Part shown: in pieces, positions 18,360 to 53,941 of the stretch
Position numbering within the stretch: the stretch's first letter is position 1
Layout: every line of letters starts with the position of its first letter
Assembly: GCA_963697165.1 (NCBI GenBank)
Contig: CAVOMX010000012.1
Location: 128,001 to 192,000, forward strand
DNA from: Candidatus Bathyarchaeota archaeon
GTDB taxonomy: Archaea > Thermoproteota > Bathyarchaeia > Bathyarchaeales > Bathyarchaeaceae
Direction: 5' to 3'
DNA: 64,000 nucleotides
Made by a program: the position numbers and the translations under genes
Notes under the pieces: model-generated
Seen by the model: only the letters and a program-made list of their open reading frames with translations
Databases searched by the model: none
What the model was told of the DNA's origin: nothing

Positions 18360-19846
18360 ATGAATGGGCAAAGAAAATTTCAGGAACCTAGAGCATCTGT
18401 TCCCATCGAAAAAATTGACGATTACCACTGGCAAATACCCACAAGCTACAAGTCTGGTATGCGTGTTCCCGGTATGGTCTTTGCTGACGAGCAACTCATC
18501 GAAAAAATAAAACTGGATCGAACACTTGATCAGTGCGCCAATGTTGCTCACTTACCCGGAATTTACAAGTATGCGATTACGTTGCCTGATGGTCATGAAG
18601 GGTATGGTTTTCCGATAGGCGGGGTTGCGGCTACAGACTATAATGAAGGCGTGATTAAGTCCAGGGGGCGTGGGCTACGACATCAACTGTGGTGTGCGTC
18701 TATTAACAACGAACCTTTCTGAAAGCGATGCTAGACCATACCTTGCTGGCCTCACCAACTCCATATTCAATAATGTTCCCAGCGGACTTGGTAGCTGCCG
18801 CAAAGACTTCCGACTGAACCTGCATGAACTTGACCAGCTGGTTACGGAGGGGGTGTCTTGGGCAGTAGATAAGGGGCTTGGACGGTCTGAAGACATCAAA
18901 CACTGTGAAGAAGAGGGATGTATGGAAGGCGCTAACCCTGACAAGATTTCGTCAAAAGCCAAGCAAAGGGGTCTTCCTCAAAGTGGCACCCTCGGTTCAG
19001 GAAACCATTTCCTAGAAATCGGAAAGGTTGACAAAATCTACGACAATAAAGTGGCTAAAACCTTCGGCGTCACACATGAGGGACAAGTTACAGTTCTGAT
19101 TCACTGTGGCTCACGCGGATTCGGACATCAAATCTGTTCAGACTATCTGCGTGTCATGGAACGAGCCGTCCAAAAATATGGCATCTCATATACCCGACAG
19201 GGAACTCGCCTGTGCACCAGCCACAAGCAACGAAGCCCAAGATTATTATCAGGCTATGGCATGCGCAGTCAACTACGCTTTTGTGAATCGTCAAGTTATC
19301 ACACATTGGGTTCGCCAGAGCTTTGAAGAGATTTTCAAGAGATCAGCGGAAGACTTGGGTTTGAATCTGGTCTACGATGTTGCCCATAATATCGCAAAGA
19401 GTGAAGAACACACTATAGACGGGAAGCGAACCAAAGTTTGGACTCACAGGAAAGGAGCGACAAGATCGTTTCCGCCTGGACACAAGGACGTTCCAGCCGA
19501 TTACCGTTCTGTGGGACAGCCTGTCATTATACCCGGAAGTATGGGCACAAGCTCGTGGCTGCTGGCGGGAACGGCTAAAGCTATGGATGTTTCTTTTGGT
19601 TCCACGGCTCATGGAGCTGGTCGCATGTTGAGCAGATCGGCTGCGAAGCGAAGGTTCTGGGGCGGAGACGTAAAACAGGCGCTGGAGGGTCGAGGAATCG
19701 TTGTCAGAGCAGCCAGTTCTACTATTTTGGCTGAAGAAGCTGATTTAGCATACAAGGATGTGGACAGAGTAGTGGACGTGAGCGATAAGGCGGGAATCGC
19801 AACCCGTGTTGCCCGCTTGGTTCCACTGGGAGTCGTAAAAGGATAA
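18360..19846 (+). CDS. rtcB: RNA-splicing ligase RtcB (two 1-nt frameshifts near 18657 and 19190)
   Basis: [63 protein letters not shown]. Confidence 0.96.
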
Positions 19847-19855
19847 AACTGGCAT

Positions 19856-20750
19856 TTAGTGCTTCTGTTGGGTTCGCAGTAGATGGAACAGGTATTCCTG
19901 TGCGTATCCTGCATATCTTCCAAAATATTGTCTCCCAAAGGAGCCTATAGTTTCGTATTCCTTAGGTGTGGGTGAGCCTTTGCTGGCGACTCGTTTAATG
20001 AACGAAGAGTCAAAGTGGCAGGTATAGAGACTTGTGGCTGCCCTCTTCATCCATACATCTATAGGAAAAGCCTCAAGCTTCTCTAAAGAAAAGAGAAGAA
20101 CGCAGTCAGCAACTTTATGTCCCACTCCTGGTAAACCCAAAAGGGTTCGTTTAGCCTCCAAATAGTCCATGTTCTTCAAAGACTCAAGAGATAGTTCCCC
20201 GTTGTCAATCATTTTTGCGGTCTCCAAAACTCGCTCAGCCCTGAAACCTAAACCACAACTTCGCAATTCTTCGATGCTGACTTGTGCTAGGTCTTCTGGC
20301 TTCGGAAAAGTGTAAAAAGTGTAGACGATCAAACGCCAACTTTTTTCCAAACTGTATGCAGATGCTATTGATCATTCTTTTGATGGCTGGGATACTCTTG
20401 TATGTTGCACAGATGTAAGAGATGAGGCACTCCCACGGTTCTTGCCTGCATAATCTCAGTCCACAGAAAAGTCTGATTGCCTCTCGAATATTCTCATCTT
20501 TGTTTATCTCAGACAGAATAGATGCTAAGTCATCGTCTAATCTCAAGTAATTCTCGATAAATCCGTGTTTTTTTGTTTCTGGAAAAATCTGAAAAATCAG
20601 CCTTTCGTTGCACTGTTTTATCTTAATCACTCTGTCTGCAACAGTGCCATACCACCAATCATCCAGTTTTTTCCATCGAAAAAGTTGACCACAATTCAAG
20701 GTGTGCTCTAAGCTGAAGGGACCAGATGACCTGTTCAGCTTAAGTTCCAT
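19856..20750 (-). CDS. 8-oxoguanine DNA glycosylase (OGG_N plus HhH-GPD; frameshift near 20330)
   Basis: TLNCGQLFRW, RQEPWECLISYIC, GLGFRA, LPGVGHKVADCV, AFPIDVW, GYAQEYLF. Confidence 0.92.
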
Positions 20751-20760
20751 GGCGTTTCCT

Positions 20761-21358
20761 TCAGCAAGTTGGTTCAGTCTGCAGGAACGGATTGTGCCTC
20801 TTTTCGTCGCCTATGGTAGTGAATGACTCGTGTCCGGGATATACCTTGAAACTGTCGGGCAAACACAAAAGCTTGGTCTTAATCGACCGTATTATCTCTT
20901 CGAATGATCCTCCGGGAAAGTCGGTTCTGCCTATAGAACCCGCGAAAAGTGTATCTCCAGTAAAAACAATGTTGTCTCCTACGAGGCATATGCCGCCTTT
21001 TGTGTGTCCGGGCGTGTGAAGAACAGCCAGCTTGAAATTGCCTACATGTATGCCGTCTCCGTCGTGGAGCTTCTGGTCTGCATTTACACGTCCAGAATGG
21101 CTTTCATGGATAAGTATGAGCGCATCTGTTGCCTCTTTGATGAAACCGTTTCCGGATATGTGATCGGGGTGACCATGAGTGTTTATGACATATTTTACGT
21201 GGAAGCCGTTCTGTTTTATGAAATCCAAAATCTCTTCTAGCTTCATTTTTGGTTTCTAATCCCGGGTCAATAATCGCCGCTTCTTTGGTTTCTTCGCAGC
21301 CTGCGACATAACAGTTTGTGGATAACCACCCAACCTTGAAGCATTCTATGATCATCAA
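20761..21358 (-). CDS. MBL-fold metallohydrolase (glyoxalase II-like; frameshift near 21240)
   Basis: THGHPDH, TPGHT, FTGDTLF, GRTDF, PGHE. Confidence 0.92.
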
Positions 21359-21509
21359 TATACCTCACTGAAAGTTGACGACAACTCCTATTCAAAAAGG
21401 GAACCACATTATAAAACATACTGAATTTTAGAGCAGAGTATCTTCAGATTAACTCTCTAAACTAGATTTCATGTAAAGTCTTAATTCACACGCTTTAGTA
21501 TATGATCTG

Positions 21510-22229
21510 GTGGAATGGAAGATGAGTCAGCAGGCTTGGGAAGGACTTATTCAAAAATTGGCTAGAACCGGTATCCTCCAGTCGCCAAATGTCATCAGAG
21601 CATTGCGTCAAGTTTCACGGAGCCAATTTCTTCCTGAAAACGTGAAAGCTAATGCAGCCATGGACTGCCCGCTTCCGATAGGGTCAGGCCAAACAGCTTC
21701 CGCGCCTCTCAGTTTACACAGTGTGGTCAACTGGGCGAAACATGGTAGCTATAATGGATGAAGCCCTTGATTTGGAAGTGGGACACAAGGTTCTGGAGGT
21801 GGGTGCAGGTTCAGGCTGGCACGCTGCCACCATAGCTGAGATAGTGGCTCCGTCGGATGCGCCTAAGGAAGAGTGGGGACACGTCTACACGGTGGAGAGA
21901 ATACCAGAGTTAGCCGCGTTTGCCAAAGACAACATTACGAAGGCAGGGTATGGAAACCGAGTCACCGTAATCCATCAGGATGGAACATTAGGGTACATCC
22001 TGAAGAGACTCCATATGATCGTATCCTAGTTGCGGCGGCTGGTCCAGAGGTGCCCAAACCTTTGATTCAACAGTTAGGCGAGGATGGAATCCTTCTTGTT
22101 CCTGTGGGAGGCGCCCAATTCTACCAAACTTTGATTAGACTCAGAAAAGAGAACGGAAAAACAATTGAGGAAAACTTGGGAGGAGTCGCCTTCGTACCTC
22201 TAATCGGTAAATACGGCTTCGAACCGTAA
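21510..22229 (+). CDS. pcm: Protein-L-isoaspartate O-methyltransferase, interrupted by a 31-nt BHB intron (plus an indel near 21997)
   Basis: [19 protein letters not shown] after splicing; [38 protein letters not shown]. Confidence 0.92.
21709..21739 (+). other. Predicted archaeal BHB intron in pcm mRNA (31 nt)
   Basis: Helix CGCC(21703-06)/GGCG(21734-37), bulges TC^T and AA^A, intron stem CAGTT/AACTG; excision gives CCT-CAC-ATG (P-H-M) in frame. Confidence 0.85.
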
Positions 22230-22235
22230 ATGACA

Positions 22236-23270
22236 CTAGCCGAACCACGTTTCAAGAGTTGTTTTGCTTTTTGCTTCCTTTAGTCCTTCAGCCATTTTGT
22301 TGAGGGTTCTACGCACCCGATCCTCAGAAAAGTCTCTTTCGCGGCAAAGAAAGTCTACTACACCATCGACGTTGGGCGCTTTCCATTCCAGCTTATAGTT
22401 GTCCGTAACTTTTGGGTGAAGAAAGATTTCCCGTATTCTTTTAGGTTCAGCCGGAAATGTGGCATCTTCCAACTCAGGTATAGCCTCTTCGATGCTTCCA
22501 TGTTTCTTGATCAGTTTCAGAGCAGTTTTTGGTCCTATTCCCTTCACGCCATTAGGATTAAAGTCCGTTCCCACCAGAATCGCCACATCTATGAGCTGCT
22601 CACGCGTGACATCCAAATCTTTGAGAACCTGATCAAGTTTCATAATCTCCGGCACAACTTCAACATAAACATTCTTTCTTGGAACCTTTCGTCTGCCACT
22701 TATAGTCACGTTTCTCACAAGAGCAGTTGCGCCAAAGAGAAGACTATCGTAGTCTTGGCTGGCACAGTAGTCAGCATCACCCTTGATTGTTAGGTAGGCA
22801 GCTTGGGATTCACCTTCAGACGGCGCTTGAATCCATGGCACGCCCAATTCAGTGAGAAGCCGTTTCGAATCATCTGGCATGTAGTCCTTTAGCTTAGAAG
22901 TCATTTGAGCATAGCTTCTAGCCTTCTCCATTTTTCCTTCCATTATAGCTGTTTCATACCTGACAAGAGCCTCCGCCTTGACTTTGGCTCTGCGTTTAAT
23001 CTCCGCCTCTTTGAGGGCAGGCGGAGCCCCATCAAAAACATAGGCAACCTTCATGCCCATCTCAACAAGATTAGCAGTTCTGTAGAATAACCCACTAAGA
23101 TGACTGGTTATCCTGCCAGAACGATCCTTCAAAGGTGTGCCATCTGGCTGACGGATGATCGCCAAAAACTGGTAAAGGGCATTGTATGCGTCGATTGCTA
23201 CAGTCTTTCCGCTCAGGCTCTTGAAATCAACCTTTGTCTTAGGTATCAATACCCTCAAATTTACGCCCAA
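22236..23270 (-). CDS. fen: Flap endonuclease 1
   Basis: TTG start MGVNL; IDAYNALYQFL, VFDG, APSEGE, SQDYDSLLFG, GTDFN, GIGPKTA, C-terminal PIP-like KTTLETWF. Confidence 0.96.
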   Translation of the reverse strand: MGVNLRVLIPKTKVDFKSLSGKTVAIDAYNALYQFLAIIRQPDGTPLKDRSGRITSHLSGLFYRTANLVEMGMKVAYVFDGAPPALKEAEIKRRAKVKAEALVRYETAIMEGKMEKARSYAQMTSKLKDYMPDDSKRLLTELGVPWIQAPSEGESQAAYLTIKGDADYCASQDYDSLLFGATALVRNVTISGRRKVPRKNVYVEVVPEIMKLDQVLKDLDVTREQLIDVAILVGTDFNPNGVKGIGPKTALKLIKKHGSIEEAIPELEDATFPAEPKRIREIFLHPKVTDNYKLEWKAPNVDGVVDFLCRERDFSEDRVRRTLNKMAEGLKEAKSKTTLETWFG

Positions 23271-23590: not shown

Positions 23591-25765
23591 CTATGCCACA
23601 GGCGTCGTGGGCTTCTTCAACTGTCGAACATGCTTCATGAAGCCCTTATACCAAGCCTCCATGTTCGGCATTATAGATGGCCCAATCTTTTCAATGGCTA
23701 TCTTGAAGTCGTTGGCATCAACTTCCTTGGCATTTATGTCCGTCCGCAGGGCATTCAGTCCAGCCTCTCTACAAAGCGCCTCGATGTCCGCCCCCGAATA
23801 CATCTTCGTTATGGTAGCCAAATTGGACAAATCCACATCTTTTGCCAGCGGCATGTCCTTAGTGTAGAGTTTGAAGATGTTTTGTCTACTCTCTTGGTCG
23901 GGTTCTGGAACGTATATCAAGCGGTCAAACCTTCCTGGTCGAAGAATCGCGGGATCCACAATGTCTGGCCTGTTTGTCGCAGCGATTATAACAACATCCT
24001 CCAAAGAGATAAGTCCATCCATCTCCGTTAGAAGTTGGCTGATAACCCGCTCTGTAACTCCACTGTCTGAGTAACCCATTCCTCGTCCGGGAACTAGAGA
24101 ATCAAATTCGTCAAAGAATATGACAGTTGGTGAAGCCATCCTTGCTTTCCGGAAAACTTCGCGGATAGCCTTCTCTGATTCACCTACCCATTTGGAGAAG
24201 ACTTCTGGACCCTTTATGGTTATGAAGTTTGCTTCACTCTCTGTGGCTACTGCCCTAGCTAGCATTGTCTTTCCACATCCAGGAGGTCCGTAGAGCATGA
24301 TTCCCTTTGGTGGTCGTATACCCATTCGAGTGAAAACGTCTGGGTTTTTGAGGGGCCACTCCACAGCCTCTATGAGGTCCTCTTTCACGTCATCTAAGCC
24401 GCCTATGTCTGTCCAACGAACCGTAGGTACTTCGATGTAGACTTCTCTCATGGCCGTCGGCGTGATTTCGCGGAAAGCGTTTAAGAAAGTCTTCCATTCG
24501 AACCTCCATTTTATCCAAAACATTAGGAGGAACACGCTCTTCCTCTAGATTTATTTCTGGTAGGTATCTGCGCAACGCTTTCATGGCTGTTTCGCGTCCC
24601 AATGCGGACAAGTCGGCTCCTGTGTAACCGTGAGACATGTTTGGAGAGCTTATCCAAATCAACATCTTCTTTTAGGGGCATGCCTCTGGTGTGAATCTGA
24701 AGTACTTCAAATCGTCCTTTTTTGTCGGGTACGCCTATTTCAATTTCTCGGTCAAAACGTCCAGGTCGTCTCAAAGCAGGGTCTAAGGCTTCAGGCCTGT
24801 TTGTGGCGCCTATTACAATGAGGTAGCCTCTTCCTGAAAGACCATCCATCAAAGCTAGAAGCTGAGCAACAACCCGTCTCTCAACTTCTCCTGTAACCTC
24901 TTCTCTTTTAGGTGCGATTGCATCCAGCTCGTCTATGAAGACGATGCTGGGAGCGTTCTTTTGAGCCTGCTGGAACATTTCGCGGAGTCTAGCCTCAGAT
25001 TCGCCGTAAAATTTGCTCATTATTTCTGGACCGTTTATTGAGTAGAAGTTAGCCTCAGACTCGTTTGCAACTGCTCGGGCTAGAAGGGTTTTTCCACATC
25101 CCGGCGGTCCATGTAACAGAACTCCTTTTGGAGGATCAATTCCAAGCCTTTGGAAAAGTTCTGGGTGCCGCAGCGGAAGTTCAACCATTTCTCGAATCCG
25201 CTGAATCTCCTCCTCGAGTCCTCCTATATCCTCGTATGTTGTGCGAGGCAAGCCTTTGGTTTCAGGAGCTGGTTCAGCCATTATCTGGAGGCTTGTGCCG
25301 TGGCTGATTCTCACGATTCCGTGAGGACGAGATTTGGTTACTCGGAAGGGTATGGCATGTCCTAGCATCATAACTAGGGTGGTGTCTCCTTCCACGAATG
25401 TTCTTTCCATAAGTCGGTTTTTCACAAAGTTTGTGAAGTCTTCATCAACATTTAGTTTCATGTCTATGGGAGCTAAAACTACGGTTGTGGCGTTGGTTAC
25501 ATTTGCAGATCGAATTACTACTAGTTCATGCATAGCAACTCCAGCATTTTTGCGTGTGAATCCGTCGATTCGGATAATGTCTCTGTTTTGGTCTTCAGAG
25601 TATGCTGGCCATGCTATGGCGGCGGTGTTTCTTTTTCCAACAATTTCTATTACGTCGCCTGCTGAGATGCCTAAGTTTTTGCATGGTTTGCTGATCGATT
25701 CGGGCGATTCCTCGATAAACGTCACGTTGTCGAGCGTCTTCTACTTTAAGTTGTACTTCGCTCAC
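23591..25765 (-). CDS. cdc48: CDC48/VCP AAA+ ATPase (three 1-nt frameshifts)
   Basis: N-domain [14 protein letters not shown]; two AAA modules ([25 protein letters not shown]). Confidence 0.96.
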
Positions 25766-40545: not shown

Positions 40546-40637
40546 TGGTGCGGCCGCCGGGATTTGAACCCGGCTCGTCAGCGTTCCGCCCTTGTAGGTT
40601 GGCAGGCTGATGTCCTTCCAAGCTAGACTACGACCGC
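40546..40637 (-). tRNA. tRNA-Gly(GCC) with 16-nt intron at canonical 37/38 (40584-40599)
   Basis: Acceptor GCGGTCG/CGGCCGC-ACCA, TTCAAAT loop, BHB CTGC/GCGG with bulges CA^A and AA^C. Confidence 0.95.
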
Positions 40638-42675: not shown

Positions 42676-44034
42676 GTGAACAGCCCATTGACTAAAAAAA
42701 GGGCATCCGCCTATCTTGTATTCACTTTACTTGTTCTATTGGCACTAACTTCTCAACCATCATTTTGTGAAGAGGCAACCCCAGAAACCCTGCTGTTAAC
42801 GATTTACCCTGACGGTTTCGTGCTTATCGACTATACTCTTATTGTGGACAAGACATTTCCAACCCAGAACATCACCGTTTTTGGTCAAGTTCTAGAAGAC
42901 TTGATTATAGTAGATTTTAATGGTTTACCTCTTAGGCTACTCACAAAACGGTTCTACACTCAGCATTTACACTCTTGGAACAGAAGAAATCAGCATTACA
43001 TACATCACCCAAGACCTCACCTCAAAAGAGGGAAGATACTGGACTCTGACAATGGTTGCTCCAATAACTACGCGGATAATCTTACCTGTAGAAGCGGCAA
43101 TCATAAGCCTGAACAAAGTGCCAGAAATTATAGAAACCAACAACGATAAAGTAACGCTTCTCATGAACGCTGGCTTAATCGAAGTAACCTACGTGGTAGG
43201 CATCGTTGGAACCGAAGAGTACGCACAAATAGTGATTGACGAGGCTGAAACGACCATCTTGAAAATCAAGAATTTGGTAACCATCATAACTGAGGCTGAA
43301 ACAATGCTTCAGGATGCAGAAGGACGCTTTTGAGCCTCGGCAATTATGCAGAAGCTGAAACCATTGGAAATGAAGCAAAAAATTTGGCAATTCAGATTAA
43401 CCAGACAGCAACCCAAGCCCAATCCAAAATAGCTGAGGCACAAACTACAGATAGTCAACAGCCGAAAATGAGAAAAGAACAGTTGGGTTAACTGACGCAA
43501 AAGACCTGCTTAACCCAAGCCAACAGCACATATGACGTCGGAAACTATTCTGAAGCATTGAGTTTTGGCGACTCAGGCAATAGTTGAAGCAGAAGACTCC
43601 AGCCTTTTCGGTGTCTGAAGAGTCTGAGGAACTTTTCCAGTCTTAGAGTTTTTCGGAGCTATCATGATTTCGGTTATAGCTGTCTTCGGTTTCATTTTTT
43701 GTCAAATCAAGAAAAAAACCCAAAGAAACTGAGGCTAAACAGAAGAAGAGACAGAATAGACGCTGAGCGAATATTTCGAGAACACAAAGATTTGATGCCC
43801 GAAGAAAAGCAGGCAATCCAGTTTCTGGTAGACAACAATGGCGAGGCCTTTGAGGCAGAACTCTATGATGATGTTAAGCTTCCAAGAACAACCACCTGGA
43901 GACTTGTTAAACGGCTAAAAAGAATGGGCATCATAACTGTTACCAAGTTCAGAAGACAGAATCTGGTACGACTGAAAACCAAATACGAAATCAAAGAACA
44001 GCCATCGTTTGAAAACTGTCTGCCATTGTTTTGA
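42676..44034 (+). CDS. Membrane-anchored protein with C-terminal wHTH (many frameshifts)
   Basis: Signal peptide, LTIYPDG, helical region, TM segment, then GEAFEAEL..KLPRTTTWRLVKRLKRMG. Confidence 0.7.
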
Positions 44035-53160: not shown

Positions 53161-53263
53161 TGGTGCCGAGGGCCGGATTTGAACAGGCGACAACTCGGTC
53201 TTCAGCTTCACCCTCAACTTTGTGTGTTGAGTCGAGTGCTCTCCCAAGCTGAGCTACCTCGGC
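53161..53263 (-). tRNA. tRNA-Phe(GAA) with 26-nt non-canonical intron at 30/31 (53207-53232)
   Basis: Acceptor GCCGAGG/CCTCGGC-ACCA; BHB CACT/GGTG with bulges CG^A and AA^G; splicing restores CTCGG-CTGAAGA-CCGAG. Confidence 0.92.
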
Positions 53264-53846: not shown

Positions 53847-53941
53847 TGGTGGGCCCGGCCGGATTTGAACCGGCGATCTCTTCCGCGTGAGGGAAGCGTC
53901 TTTTGGCCTCAAATGGAGTTAACCAACTGGACCACGGGCCC
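53847..53941 (-). tRNA. tRNA-Val(CAC) with 18-nt D-arm intron at about 21/22 (53902-53919)
   Basis: Acceptor GGGCCCG/CGGGCCC-ACCA; BHB TGGT/GCCA with bulges TA^A and AA^A; anticodon arm CTTCC-CTCACGC-GGAAG. Confidence 0.92.

Follow-up and report, generated by a model that had tools for sequence, protein, structure and literature searches.

Evidence for a tRNA-type intron within the coding sequence of the protein-repair gene pcm in Bathyarchaeia

The window analyzed here is a stretch of 64,000 nucleotides (nt) from an assembly of Candidatus Bathyarchaeota archaeon (G000:C12:128001-192000), G000 being a 1.99-Mb assembly, 81% complete, with a G+C content of 41%. [quoted passage not shown] This insert is very probably an intron of the tRNA type, built around the motif known as bulge-helix-bulge (BHB), absent from one RNA contig at exactly the predicted ends, and likely cut out by a splicing endonuclease of two subunits (EndA), with the ligase RtcB sealing the RNA. 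Splicing is likely because inserts occur at the same site in relatives, their paired bases covary, a contig from the metatranscriptome run X2 skips exactly 31 bases, and the genome carries both EndA and RtcB genes. In the literature searched, pcm is the second archaeal gene, after cbf5, with a BHB intron in its coding sequence, and the intron is very likely spliced.

The interrupted gene and its RNA

The features of pcm are as follows, with positions counted from the first letter of the window.

21522..21708, plus strand: pcm exon 1, running from Met1 up to base 1 of the split His codon and containing the GQTxSAP active-site motif (PIMT profile positions 3-63)
21510, plus strand: GTG, a possible longer pcm start
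21703..21706, plus strand: 5' strand of the central helix, CGCC, made in the exon by the end of an Ala codon and the start of a Pro codon; pairs in 106/106 loci
21707..21709, plus strand: first 3-nt bulge, with the predicted 5' splice site after 21708; the RNA joint begins after 21708
21709..21739, plus strand: putative BHB intron, 31 nt, skipped in the X2 RNA contig and present in an X1 contig; same-site inserts in relatives
21710..21733, plus strand: intron hairpin with a 5-bp stem (21710-21714 with 21729-21733), 8-9 bp in close relatives
21734..21737, plus strand: 3' strand of the central helix, GGCG, in the intron; pairs with CGCC at 21703-21706
21738..21740, plus strand: second 3-nt bulge, with the predicted 3' splice site after 21739; the RNA joint continues at 21740
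21740..22229, plus strand: pcm exon 2, from S-adenosylmethionine (SAM)-binding motif I onward to TAA (profile positions 64-142 and 141-214), with a 2-nt excess near 21997
21759..21761, plus strand: TGA closing the unspliced reading, 79 amino acids (aa) from ATG 21522, ahead of the SAM-binding motif and fold

An initial annotation of this DNA had proposed the BHB from the letters alone, and its coordinates for the CGCC/GGCG helix, the bulges and the 5-bp intron stem are all correct on the sequence. If both cuts are placed behind the second bulge base, 21709-21739 is excised and Pro-His-Met is joined in frame, as had been predicted, and the three tRNA introns of the window (16, 24 and 16 nt) obey the same rule. 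With the insert removed in silico, the reading runs uninterrupted through the xSAPHM motif, and the three pieces of pcm match successive ranges of the PIMT profile in a profile search (3-63, 64-142 and 141-214). An intronless homologue matches solved PIMT structures (2yxe, E 1e-56; 1jg1, E 3e-52), and through that homologue the spliced reading aligns gap-free to archaeal PIMTs; L002, an intact pcm homologue, is 224 aa long. The unspliced message does end at the TGA that had been pointed out, after 79 aa, and would yield only a dead stub of that length. No second copy of pcm was found in the 81% of the genome that the assembly is estimated to represent.

In the mechanism proposed, the pcm transcript would fold into the BHB, EndA would cut after base 2 of each bulge, and RtcB would ligate the exons, restoring the His codon and with it a 224-aa PIMT; it is to EndA and RtcB specifically that we would assign the cutting and joining. 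The intron lies two codons after the active-site Ser of xSAPH, where only exact removal would restore the protein, comparable to the cbf5 intron in a catalytic Asp codon. Thr57-Ser59 of human PIMT are placed at the substrate site (PMC8275801) and PIMT Ser60 is described as related to catalysis (PMC7565475); by our own reading of the motif, these residues would correspond to the Ser of xSAPH.

The initial annotation had also suggested a transcriptome search for the spliced junction, and this junction was found. Four metatranscriptome runs (X1-X4), each holding a small share of the region's words, were compared as assembled contigs, and one X2 contig of 245 nt (depth 2.2) joins 21708 to 21740, skipping exactly 31 letters at an unambiguous joint. 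It has 0 differences in the 107 nt upstream (21602-21708) and 3 in the 138 nt downstream (21740-21877), i.e. 242/245 identical positions, whereas over the same stretch even the nearest of the other genomes compared shows 34 or more differences; the contig therefore comes from the window's species or one very near to it. Among the contigs listed for X3 and X4, none lies over the intron, one table of this comparison covering 24 of 44 pieces.

Conservation of the insert and the splicing machinery

Alignment of pcm from relatives, likewise proposed at the outset, revealed same-site inserts whose pairing is kept. Among the 30 best pcm homologues from 41 genomes searched, 22 carry an insert of 29-32 nt at this site, and the other 8 have the exact intronless join. 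A further 21 loci, chosen because the gene looked split or contained a stop, yielded 20 parsed introns (30-48 nt) and one that the motif missed; L115, which failed the motif and was left out of the counts, carries a 30-nt intron, and L276, a chance match to the pattern, was removed. When the genome collection was scanned with the same-site pattern, 119 or more places matched. Among the 80 records listed by title, 75 are Bathyarchaeia or Bathyarchaeota, 3 Thermoproteota, 1 Jordarchaeia and 1 an uncultured archaeon, these five outlying records being assigned by title only. Two loci, L134 (titled Thermoproteota) and L175 (titled Jordarchaeia), have same-site pcm introns of 25 and 29 nt and cluster with G426 on the pcm tree; either a wrong label or transfer may account for their placement.

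In an even draw of 401 genomes across the phylum, with rows judged by eye, the BHB insert was seen in 5/7 family members (the window's own included), 20/40 other members of the order, 0/13 genomes from the other orders of the class and 14/341 genomes of other classes, the last belonging to four families. The other orders of the class are nonetheless represented, by five genomes with a pcm intron. The parsed introns of other classes are 23-34 nt long (of the 14 genomes, four were fetched and four more were obtained as loci). As a separate observation, genus g21 of family f9 has a pcm match (E <= 1e-8) in 8/40 genomes, many of them >90% complete, and the gene has possibly been lost there.

Base pairs were counted from both splice sites, with no fitted alignment, in 106 distinct loci with introns of 25-48 nt, and compared with 500 shuffles. 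All 22 loci that came from the protein search, and hence were not selected by pattern, have the full 4-bp central helix between two 3-nt bulges; in the whole, partly pattern-selected set the central helix pairs in 106/106 loci, and the second bulge reads A-N-A in 106/106, which the search pattern required for part of the set. The second pair of the central helix is G-C in 96 loci, A-U in 9 and G-U in 1, and never A-C, the switch from G-C to A-U in 9 loci combining a silent change of the Ala codon in the exon with a corresponding one on the intron strand. In the stem, pairs 1-5 are formed in 105, 105, 105, 103 and 100 of the 106 loci, each above all 500 shuffles; pair 1 occurs as U-A (52), C-G (43), G-C (7) and U-G (3), for a total of 105 against a shuffle mean of 70.8 and maximum of 79. 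With the partner shifted by +1, the stem positions pair in 99, 12, 103, 2 and 96 loci, and shifts by one or two break most of the pairing but not all, because the strands are biased to purines or pyrimidines and G-U is allowed. In tree-aware comparisons, the independent pairs were concordant in about 5.6 of 6 cases at stem pair 1; at the helix pair the figure was 3.7 of 4, and at neither did any go in the opposite direction.

Codon choice at the site is constrained where the intron is present: all 67 intron-bearing genes, some of them pattern-selected, are limited to GCG/GCA, CCT/CCA and CAC, vs. 7/25 intronless genes. All three frames are represented among the intron lengths (25-48 nt), and a stop lies inside 22/22 in-frame introns compared with 60/84 out-of-frame ones (15/15 vs. 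56/79 in the unselected subset). Excluding the common stop at codon 2, found in 51/106 introns, leaves 5/5 in-frame and 26/50 out-of-frame introns with a stop; given kinship and small numbers, the excess in in-frame introns is suggestive only. With lengths in all frames and a stop in every in-frame intron, read-through therefore cannot yield the protein.

The genome encodes the enzymes that such splicing would require, and the window holds tRNA introns of the same kind:

G000:C15:31202: EndA of the catalytic type, 185 aa, with Tyr, His and Lys at the catalytic motifs by eye (L031 and L032 are the two EndA loci)
G000:C25:27497: EndA of the structural type, 193 aa, without the catalytic His by eye
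18360..19846, plus strand: rtcB, the sole RNA-splicing ligase gene found in G000, in three abutting frames, 1.7 kb upstream of pcm
40584-40599 (16 nt), 53208-53231 (24 nt) and 53903-53918 (16 nt), minus strand: three tRNA introns that fit the BHB cut rule

A Tyr/His/Lys catalytic triad has been described for EndA (PMC10485636), and the pair in G000 fits, as judged from its residues, the two-subunit type tied to cbf5 splicing and to relaxed motifs (PMC10485636, PMC12397907). EndA and RtcB are reported from all archaeal genomes examined, Bathyarchaeia included (PMC12918454), and rtcB is whole in 5/5 relatives searched. Two of the three tRNA introns apparently sit off the usual anticodon-loop position, and ARAGORN mis-names those tRNAs.

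Alternative explanations and the fate of the intron

Several observations weigh against the insert being a spliced BHB intron. In RNA, the joint is seen in one assembled contig (depth 2.2) of a single run, and an intronless strain of the same species is a possible source of it; in addition, an X1 contig (depth 6.3, 3 differences in 177 nt) reads through the insert, and this unspliced sequence is either precursor RNA or DNA. Some of the 106 loci were found by a pattern that fixes three helix pairs and the bulge ends, although it fixes neither the combination at the second pair nor the stem. Of the exon-side stem drawn in the initial annotation, one G-C pair is invariant, and the remainder is not conserved: the next position pairs in 42/106 loci, which equals the shuffle mean. 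The motif is a relaxed one, and two-subunit EndA enzymes are reported to accept relaxed BHB motifs (PMC12397907, PMC5829648). The predicted probability of the central helix reaches 0.5 in just 64/106 loci (0.69 in G000), and the tests on independent pairs are small, the median p values at stem pair 1, stem pair 4 and the helix pair being 0.03, 0.06 and 0.125, respectively. The BHB is present in the predicted fold of 21685-21765, yet the energy of this fold is ordinary compared with shuffles (z = 0.18), and folding energy was dropped as evidence for the intron. The rtcB gene is frameshifted in the G000 assembly. Finally, intron state varies between close species, with a single clade of the 8 intronless members of the genus being rejected (p-AU 5e-5).

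Some of these points would be accommodated if the insert were never removed, pcm being dead in its carriers and the joined contig derived from an intronless strain of the same species. Exact intronless alleles exist in the same genus (8/24 rows) and have arisen more than once, no DNA run accompanies the RNA contig, and the pcm matches in 8/40 genomes of one genus of the order imply that the gene can be dispensable. Nevertheless, both exons are open and conserved in carriers over several classes, compensating changes keep the pairing, and silent sites are constrained in carriers only. Moreover, three state changes over a tree length of 2.89 in the genus amount to about one change per substitution per site, from which we estimate a chance of about 1% for a change of intron state within 1.2% divergence. 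We consider permanent retention of the insert very improbable.

A reverse-transcriptase skip over the hairpin, which would leave the structure real but the RNA evidence void, with removal, if any, by some other route, has a slightly smaller chance still. Hairpins can be skipped by template switching, and the joint is known from one contig of a cDNA library. Template switches usually use short repeats, however, and no letters are shared between the two sides of this joint, which lies inside both bulges and not at the base of the hairpin, and which equals the join seen in intronless genes. It is harder yet to credit that the hairpin causes the ribosome to hop or shift frame across the insert without RNA splicing. 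The hairpin is stable, the stop is often early, which superficially resembles bypassing, and cbf5 introns were formerly confused with frameshifting (PMC2738675), but the inserts have lengths in all three frames, the break falls within a codon, both ends show a fixed BHB geometry, and the X2 RNA contig lacks the insert.

An error in a frameshift-rich assembly, for which the many small indels of G000 might speak (140 one-base splits against G313 and 160 against the fetched half of G024), is counted as refuted: the insert is contained in an X1 RNA contig, and it recurs in independent assemblies, with no fewer than 119 places matching the same-site pattern. Frequent small breaks call for care with each individual frame break in G000, but an insert of 31 nt is not accounted for by them. 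Near 21997, pcm has another break, which the initial annotation did not mention and which is likely an assembly error, since two X1 contigs from the RNA library are 2 nt shorter at this point, and one of these differs at only 4 further positions in 207 nt. Four neighboring genes, rtcB (18360-19846), ogg (19856-20750), a gene for an MBL-fold hydrolase (20761-21358) and cdc48 (23591-25765), are each split over at least two frames, and small consensus or assembly errors are the likely cause of these breaks.

On a pcm tree of 92 rows, the intron state has changed 13 times or more, and well-supported branches force 8 of these changes. As this tree is drawn from its midpoint and made from the pcm sequences themselves, gains, losses and allele exchange look alike on it. 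The pcm and cbf5 introns vary independently, with G001, G006 and G023 having that of cbf5 only, and G112 and G040 that of pcm only. The pcm intron would thus appear to be old, or to have spread between lineages, and then to have been cleanly lost many times, probably via replacement by a spliced or intronless copy. Most likely, it persists as a nearly neutral passenger.

A more speculative role, by analogy with the logic of HAC1/XBP1, of which it would be an archaeal counterpart, is that of a working switch, in which pcm output would be tied to the tRNA-splicing load, slow-growing or stressed cells holding the message unspliced until splicing releases it. Spliced and unspliced forms do occur in different RNA runs, a stop is present in 22/22 in-frame variants, and the intron has been kept over several classes though clean loss is easy. 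Against this stands the frequent loss without visible cost, and we think such a switch unlikely.

Known spliced mRNAs and the search for further introns

Known spliced archaeal mRNAs, according to papers of 2020 and 2023, are those of cbf5 and the HVO_1309 leader of Haloferax (PMC7714728, PMC10485636), and the 2023 review expects more to exist (PMC10485636). Introns in other genes were predicted by Peng (2004) and Brugger (2006) and are unconfirmed according to PMC2738675. We found no report of an intron in pcm or in any Bathyarchaeia mRNA in literature searched mostly outside subscription journals, supplements aside, and the available part of bioRxiv 10.64898/2026.10.13.758758 contains no mention of mRNA, cbf5, Bathy or pcm.

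The cbf5 intron (PMC2738675) is the closest parallel. Like that of pcm, it is a short BHB intron in coding sequence (16-44 nt for cbf5 and 23-48 nt for pcm), sitting behind base 1 of a codon that belongs to an active-site motif, found in hosts with two-subunit EndA and subject to precise, lineage-specific loss. The two differ in host gene (RNA modification in cbf5, protein repair in pcm), in distribution, that of pcm being mostly Bathyarchaeia, and in sequence, which is unrelated; moreover, the cbf5 intron splits the catalytic residue's own codon, whereas that of pcm splits a His codon two past the catalytic Ser. The exon-side helix has 1 pair in pcm and 4 in the cbf5 intron of G000 itself, and 13 state changes on the 92-row tree compare with at least 2 losses reported for cbf5. 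For pcm, splicing is deduced from the sequences and one RNA contig. The mRNA of HVO_1309 in Haloferax volcanii (PMC7714728, PMC10485636) likewise contains a BHB intron, one that EndA cuts in vitro, but it lies in the 5' untranslated region, is served by a homodimeric enzyme and leaves the reading frame unbroken.

With the BHB introns of archaeal tRNA and rRNA, the pcm intron shares the 3-4-3 geometry and the cut rule; unlike them, it has no sequence match elsewhere in G000 beyond chance-level words (best E 0.05), an origin from a tRNA intron of G000 being rejected for want of a match, and no endonuclease frame inside, since none could fit in 23-48 nt. Among the frames adjoining 59 intron loci, which were clustered and inspected by eye with neither a family scan nor a search for long intron variants, none was recognized as an endonuclease. 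A group I or II intron finds no support in Rfam (no match at E <= 1 in 21400-22400), and 31 nt compares with a catalytic core of hundreds of bases.

For a large uncultured lineage, the case combines more than 100 natural variants with an RNA junction. In roughly half of this order's genomes (20/40 sampled carry the intron), gene callers would overlook a spliced pcm or divide it, the variants would serve as a natural mutagenesis series for what two-subunit EndA accepts, and the recurrence of exact loss, with no dependence on the cbf5 intron of those genomes, turns archaeal intron gain and loss into a testable question.

The possibility raised initially, that pcm belongs to a wider hidden set of introns mis-called as frameshifts, has little support in G000, where only pcm and cbf5 emerged and the other breaks checked were mostly of 1-2 nt. 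As a control for chance, only one of 5,707 frame-breaking BHB-shaped candidates in G000, that of pcm, gave a gap-free match on both sides to the protein of an intact relative, and when 1,962 candidates in half of G024 and 3,113 in G313 are counted as well, pcm is still the only gene restored. These comparative scans (1.58 of about 1.63 Mb for G313, and 0.80 of 1.56 Mb for G024, the half without its pcm) detect near-canonical motifs of 13-80 nt in genes that are shared, whereas introns that are relaxed, long or confined to a lineage are outside their reach; within that range, they showed no intron besides those of pcm and cbf5. A reference-free BHB scan with a codon-usage filter gave 121 candidates, and among the 70 listed the cbf5 intron was seen and the pcm intron absent, which marks the scan as insensitive. 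In a scan for introns common to G000 and G313, cbf5 was among the 11 pairs listed, the others resembling ordinary coding sequence or rRNA. Within the limits of these scans, G000 thus shows two introns in coding sequence, that of pcm and the following one:

G000:C10:30382-30402, plus strand: cbf5 intron, 21 nt, in the catalytic Asp codon; its G313 counterpart is 26 nt, with the helix changed but paired

By eye, a cbf5 intron was read in 29/61 genomes of the order among the 150 rows listed out of 186, and intronless cbf5 in 3; the cbf5 pattern itself matched about as often as a control, and only rows read by eye were counted. In PMC2738675, the intron is reported from Desulfurococcales and Sulfolobales only.

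Other candidates were rejected. To the eye, 94 same-site BHB-shaped pairs between G000 and G024 resemble ordinary conserved coding sequence. In G024, one candidate of 33 nt precedes the start of rio2. The motifs in rnhB, hypD and ahcY of G000 sit in open frames, and the pieces of rtcB abut without an insert. Near rio2, an identical 18-nt stretch occurs just upstream of the gene at G000:C12:48335 and G024:C1 ~53235 with different flanks, and is possibly a promoter element. Compared with G313, G000:C9 ~43970-44000, apparently in 23S rRNA, contains an extra hairpin of some 23 nt, to which no clean BHB could be assigned. The same contig at ~105000-117000 is rich in G+C-rich candidates, compared with 41% G+C for the genome, and may be foreign or a binning contaminant. 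A near-identical tRNA cluster is found on two contigs (G000:C14:120388-126993 and C12:181161-187618) with slightly different intron lengths, which suggests mixed strains or a duplication.
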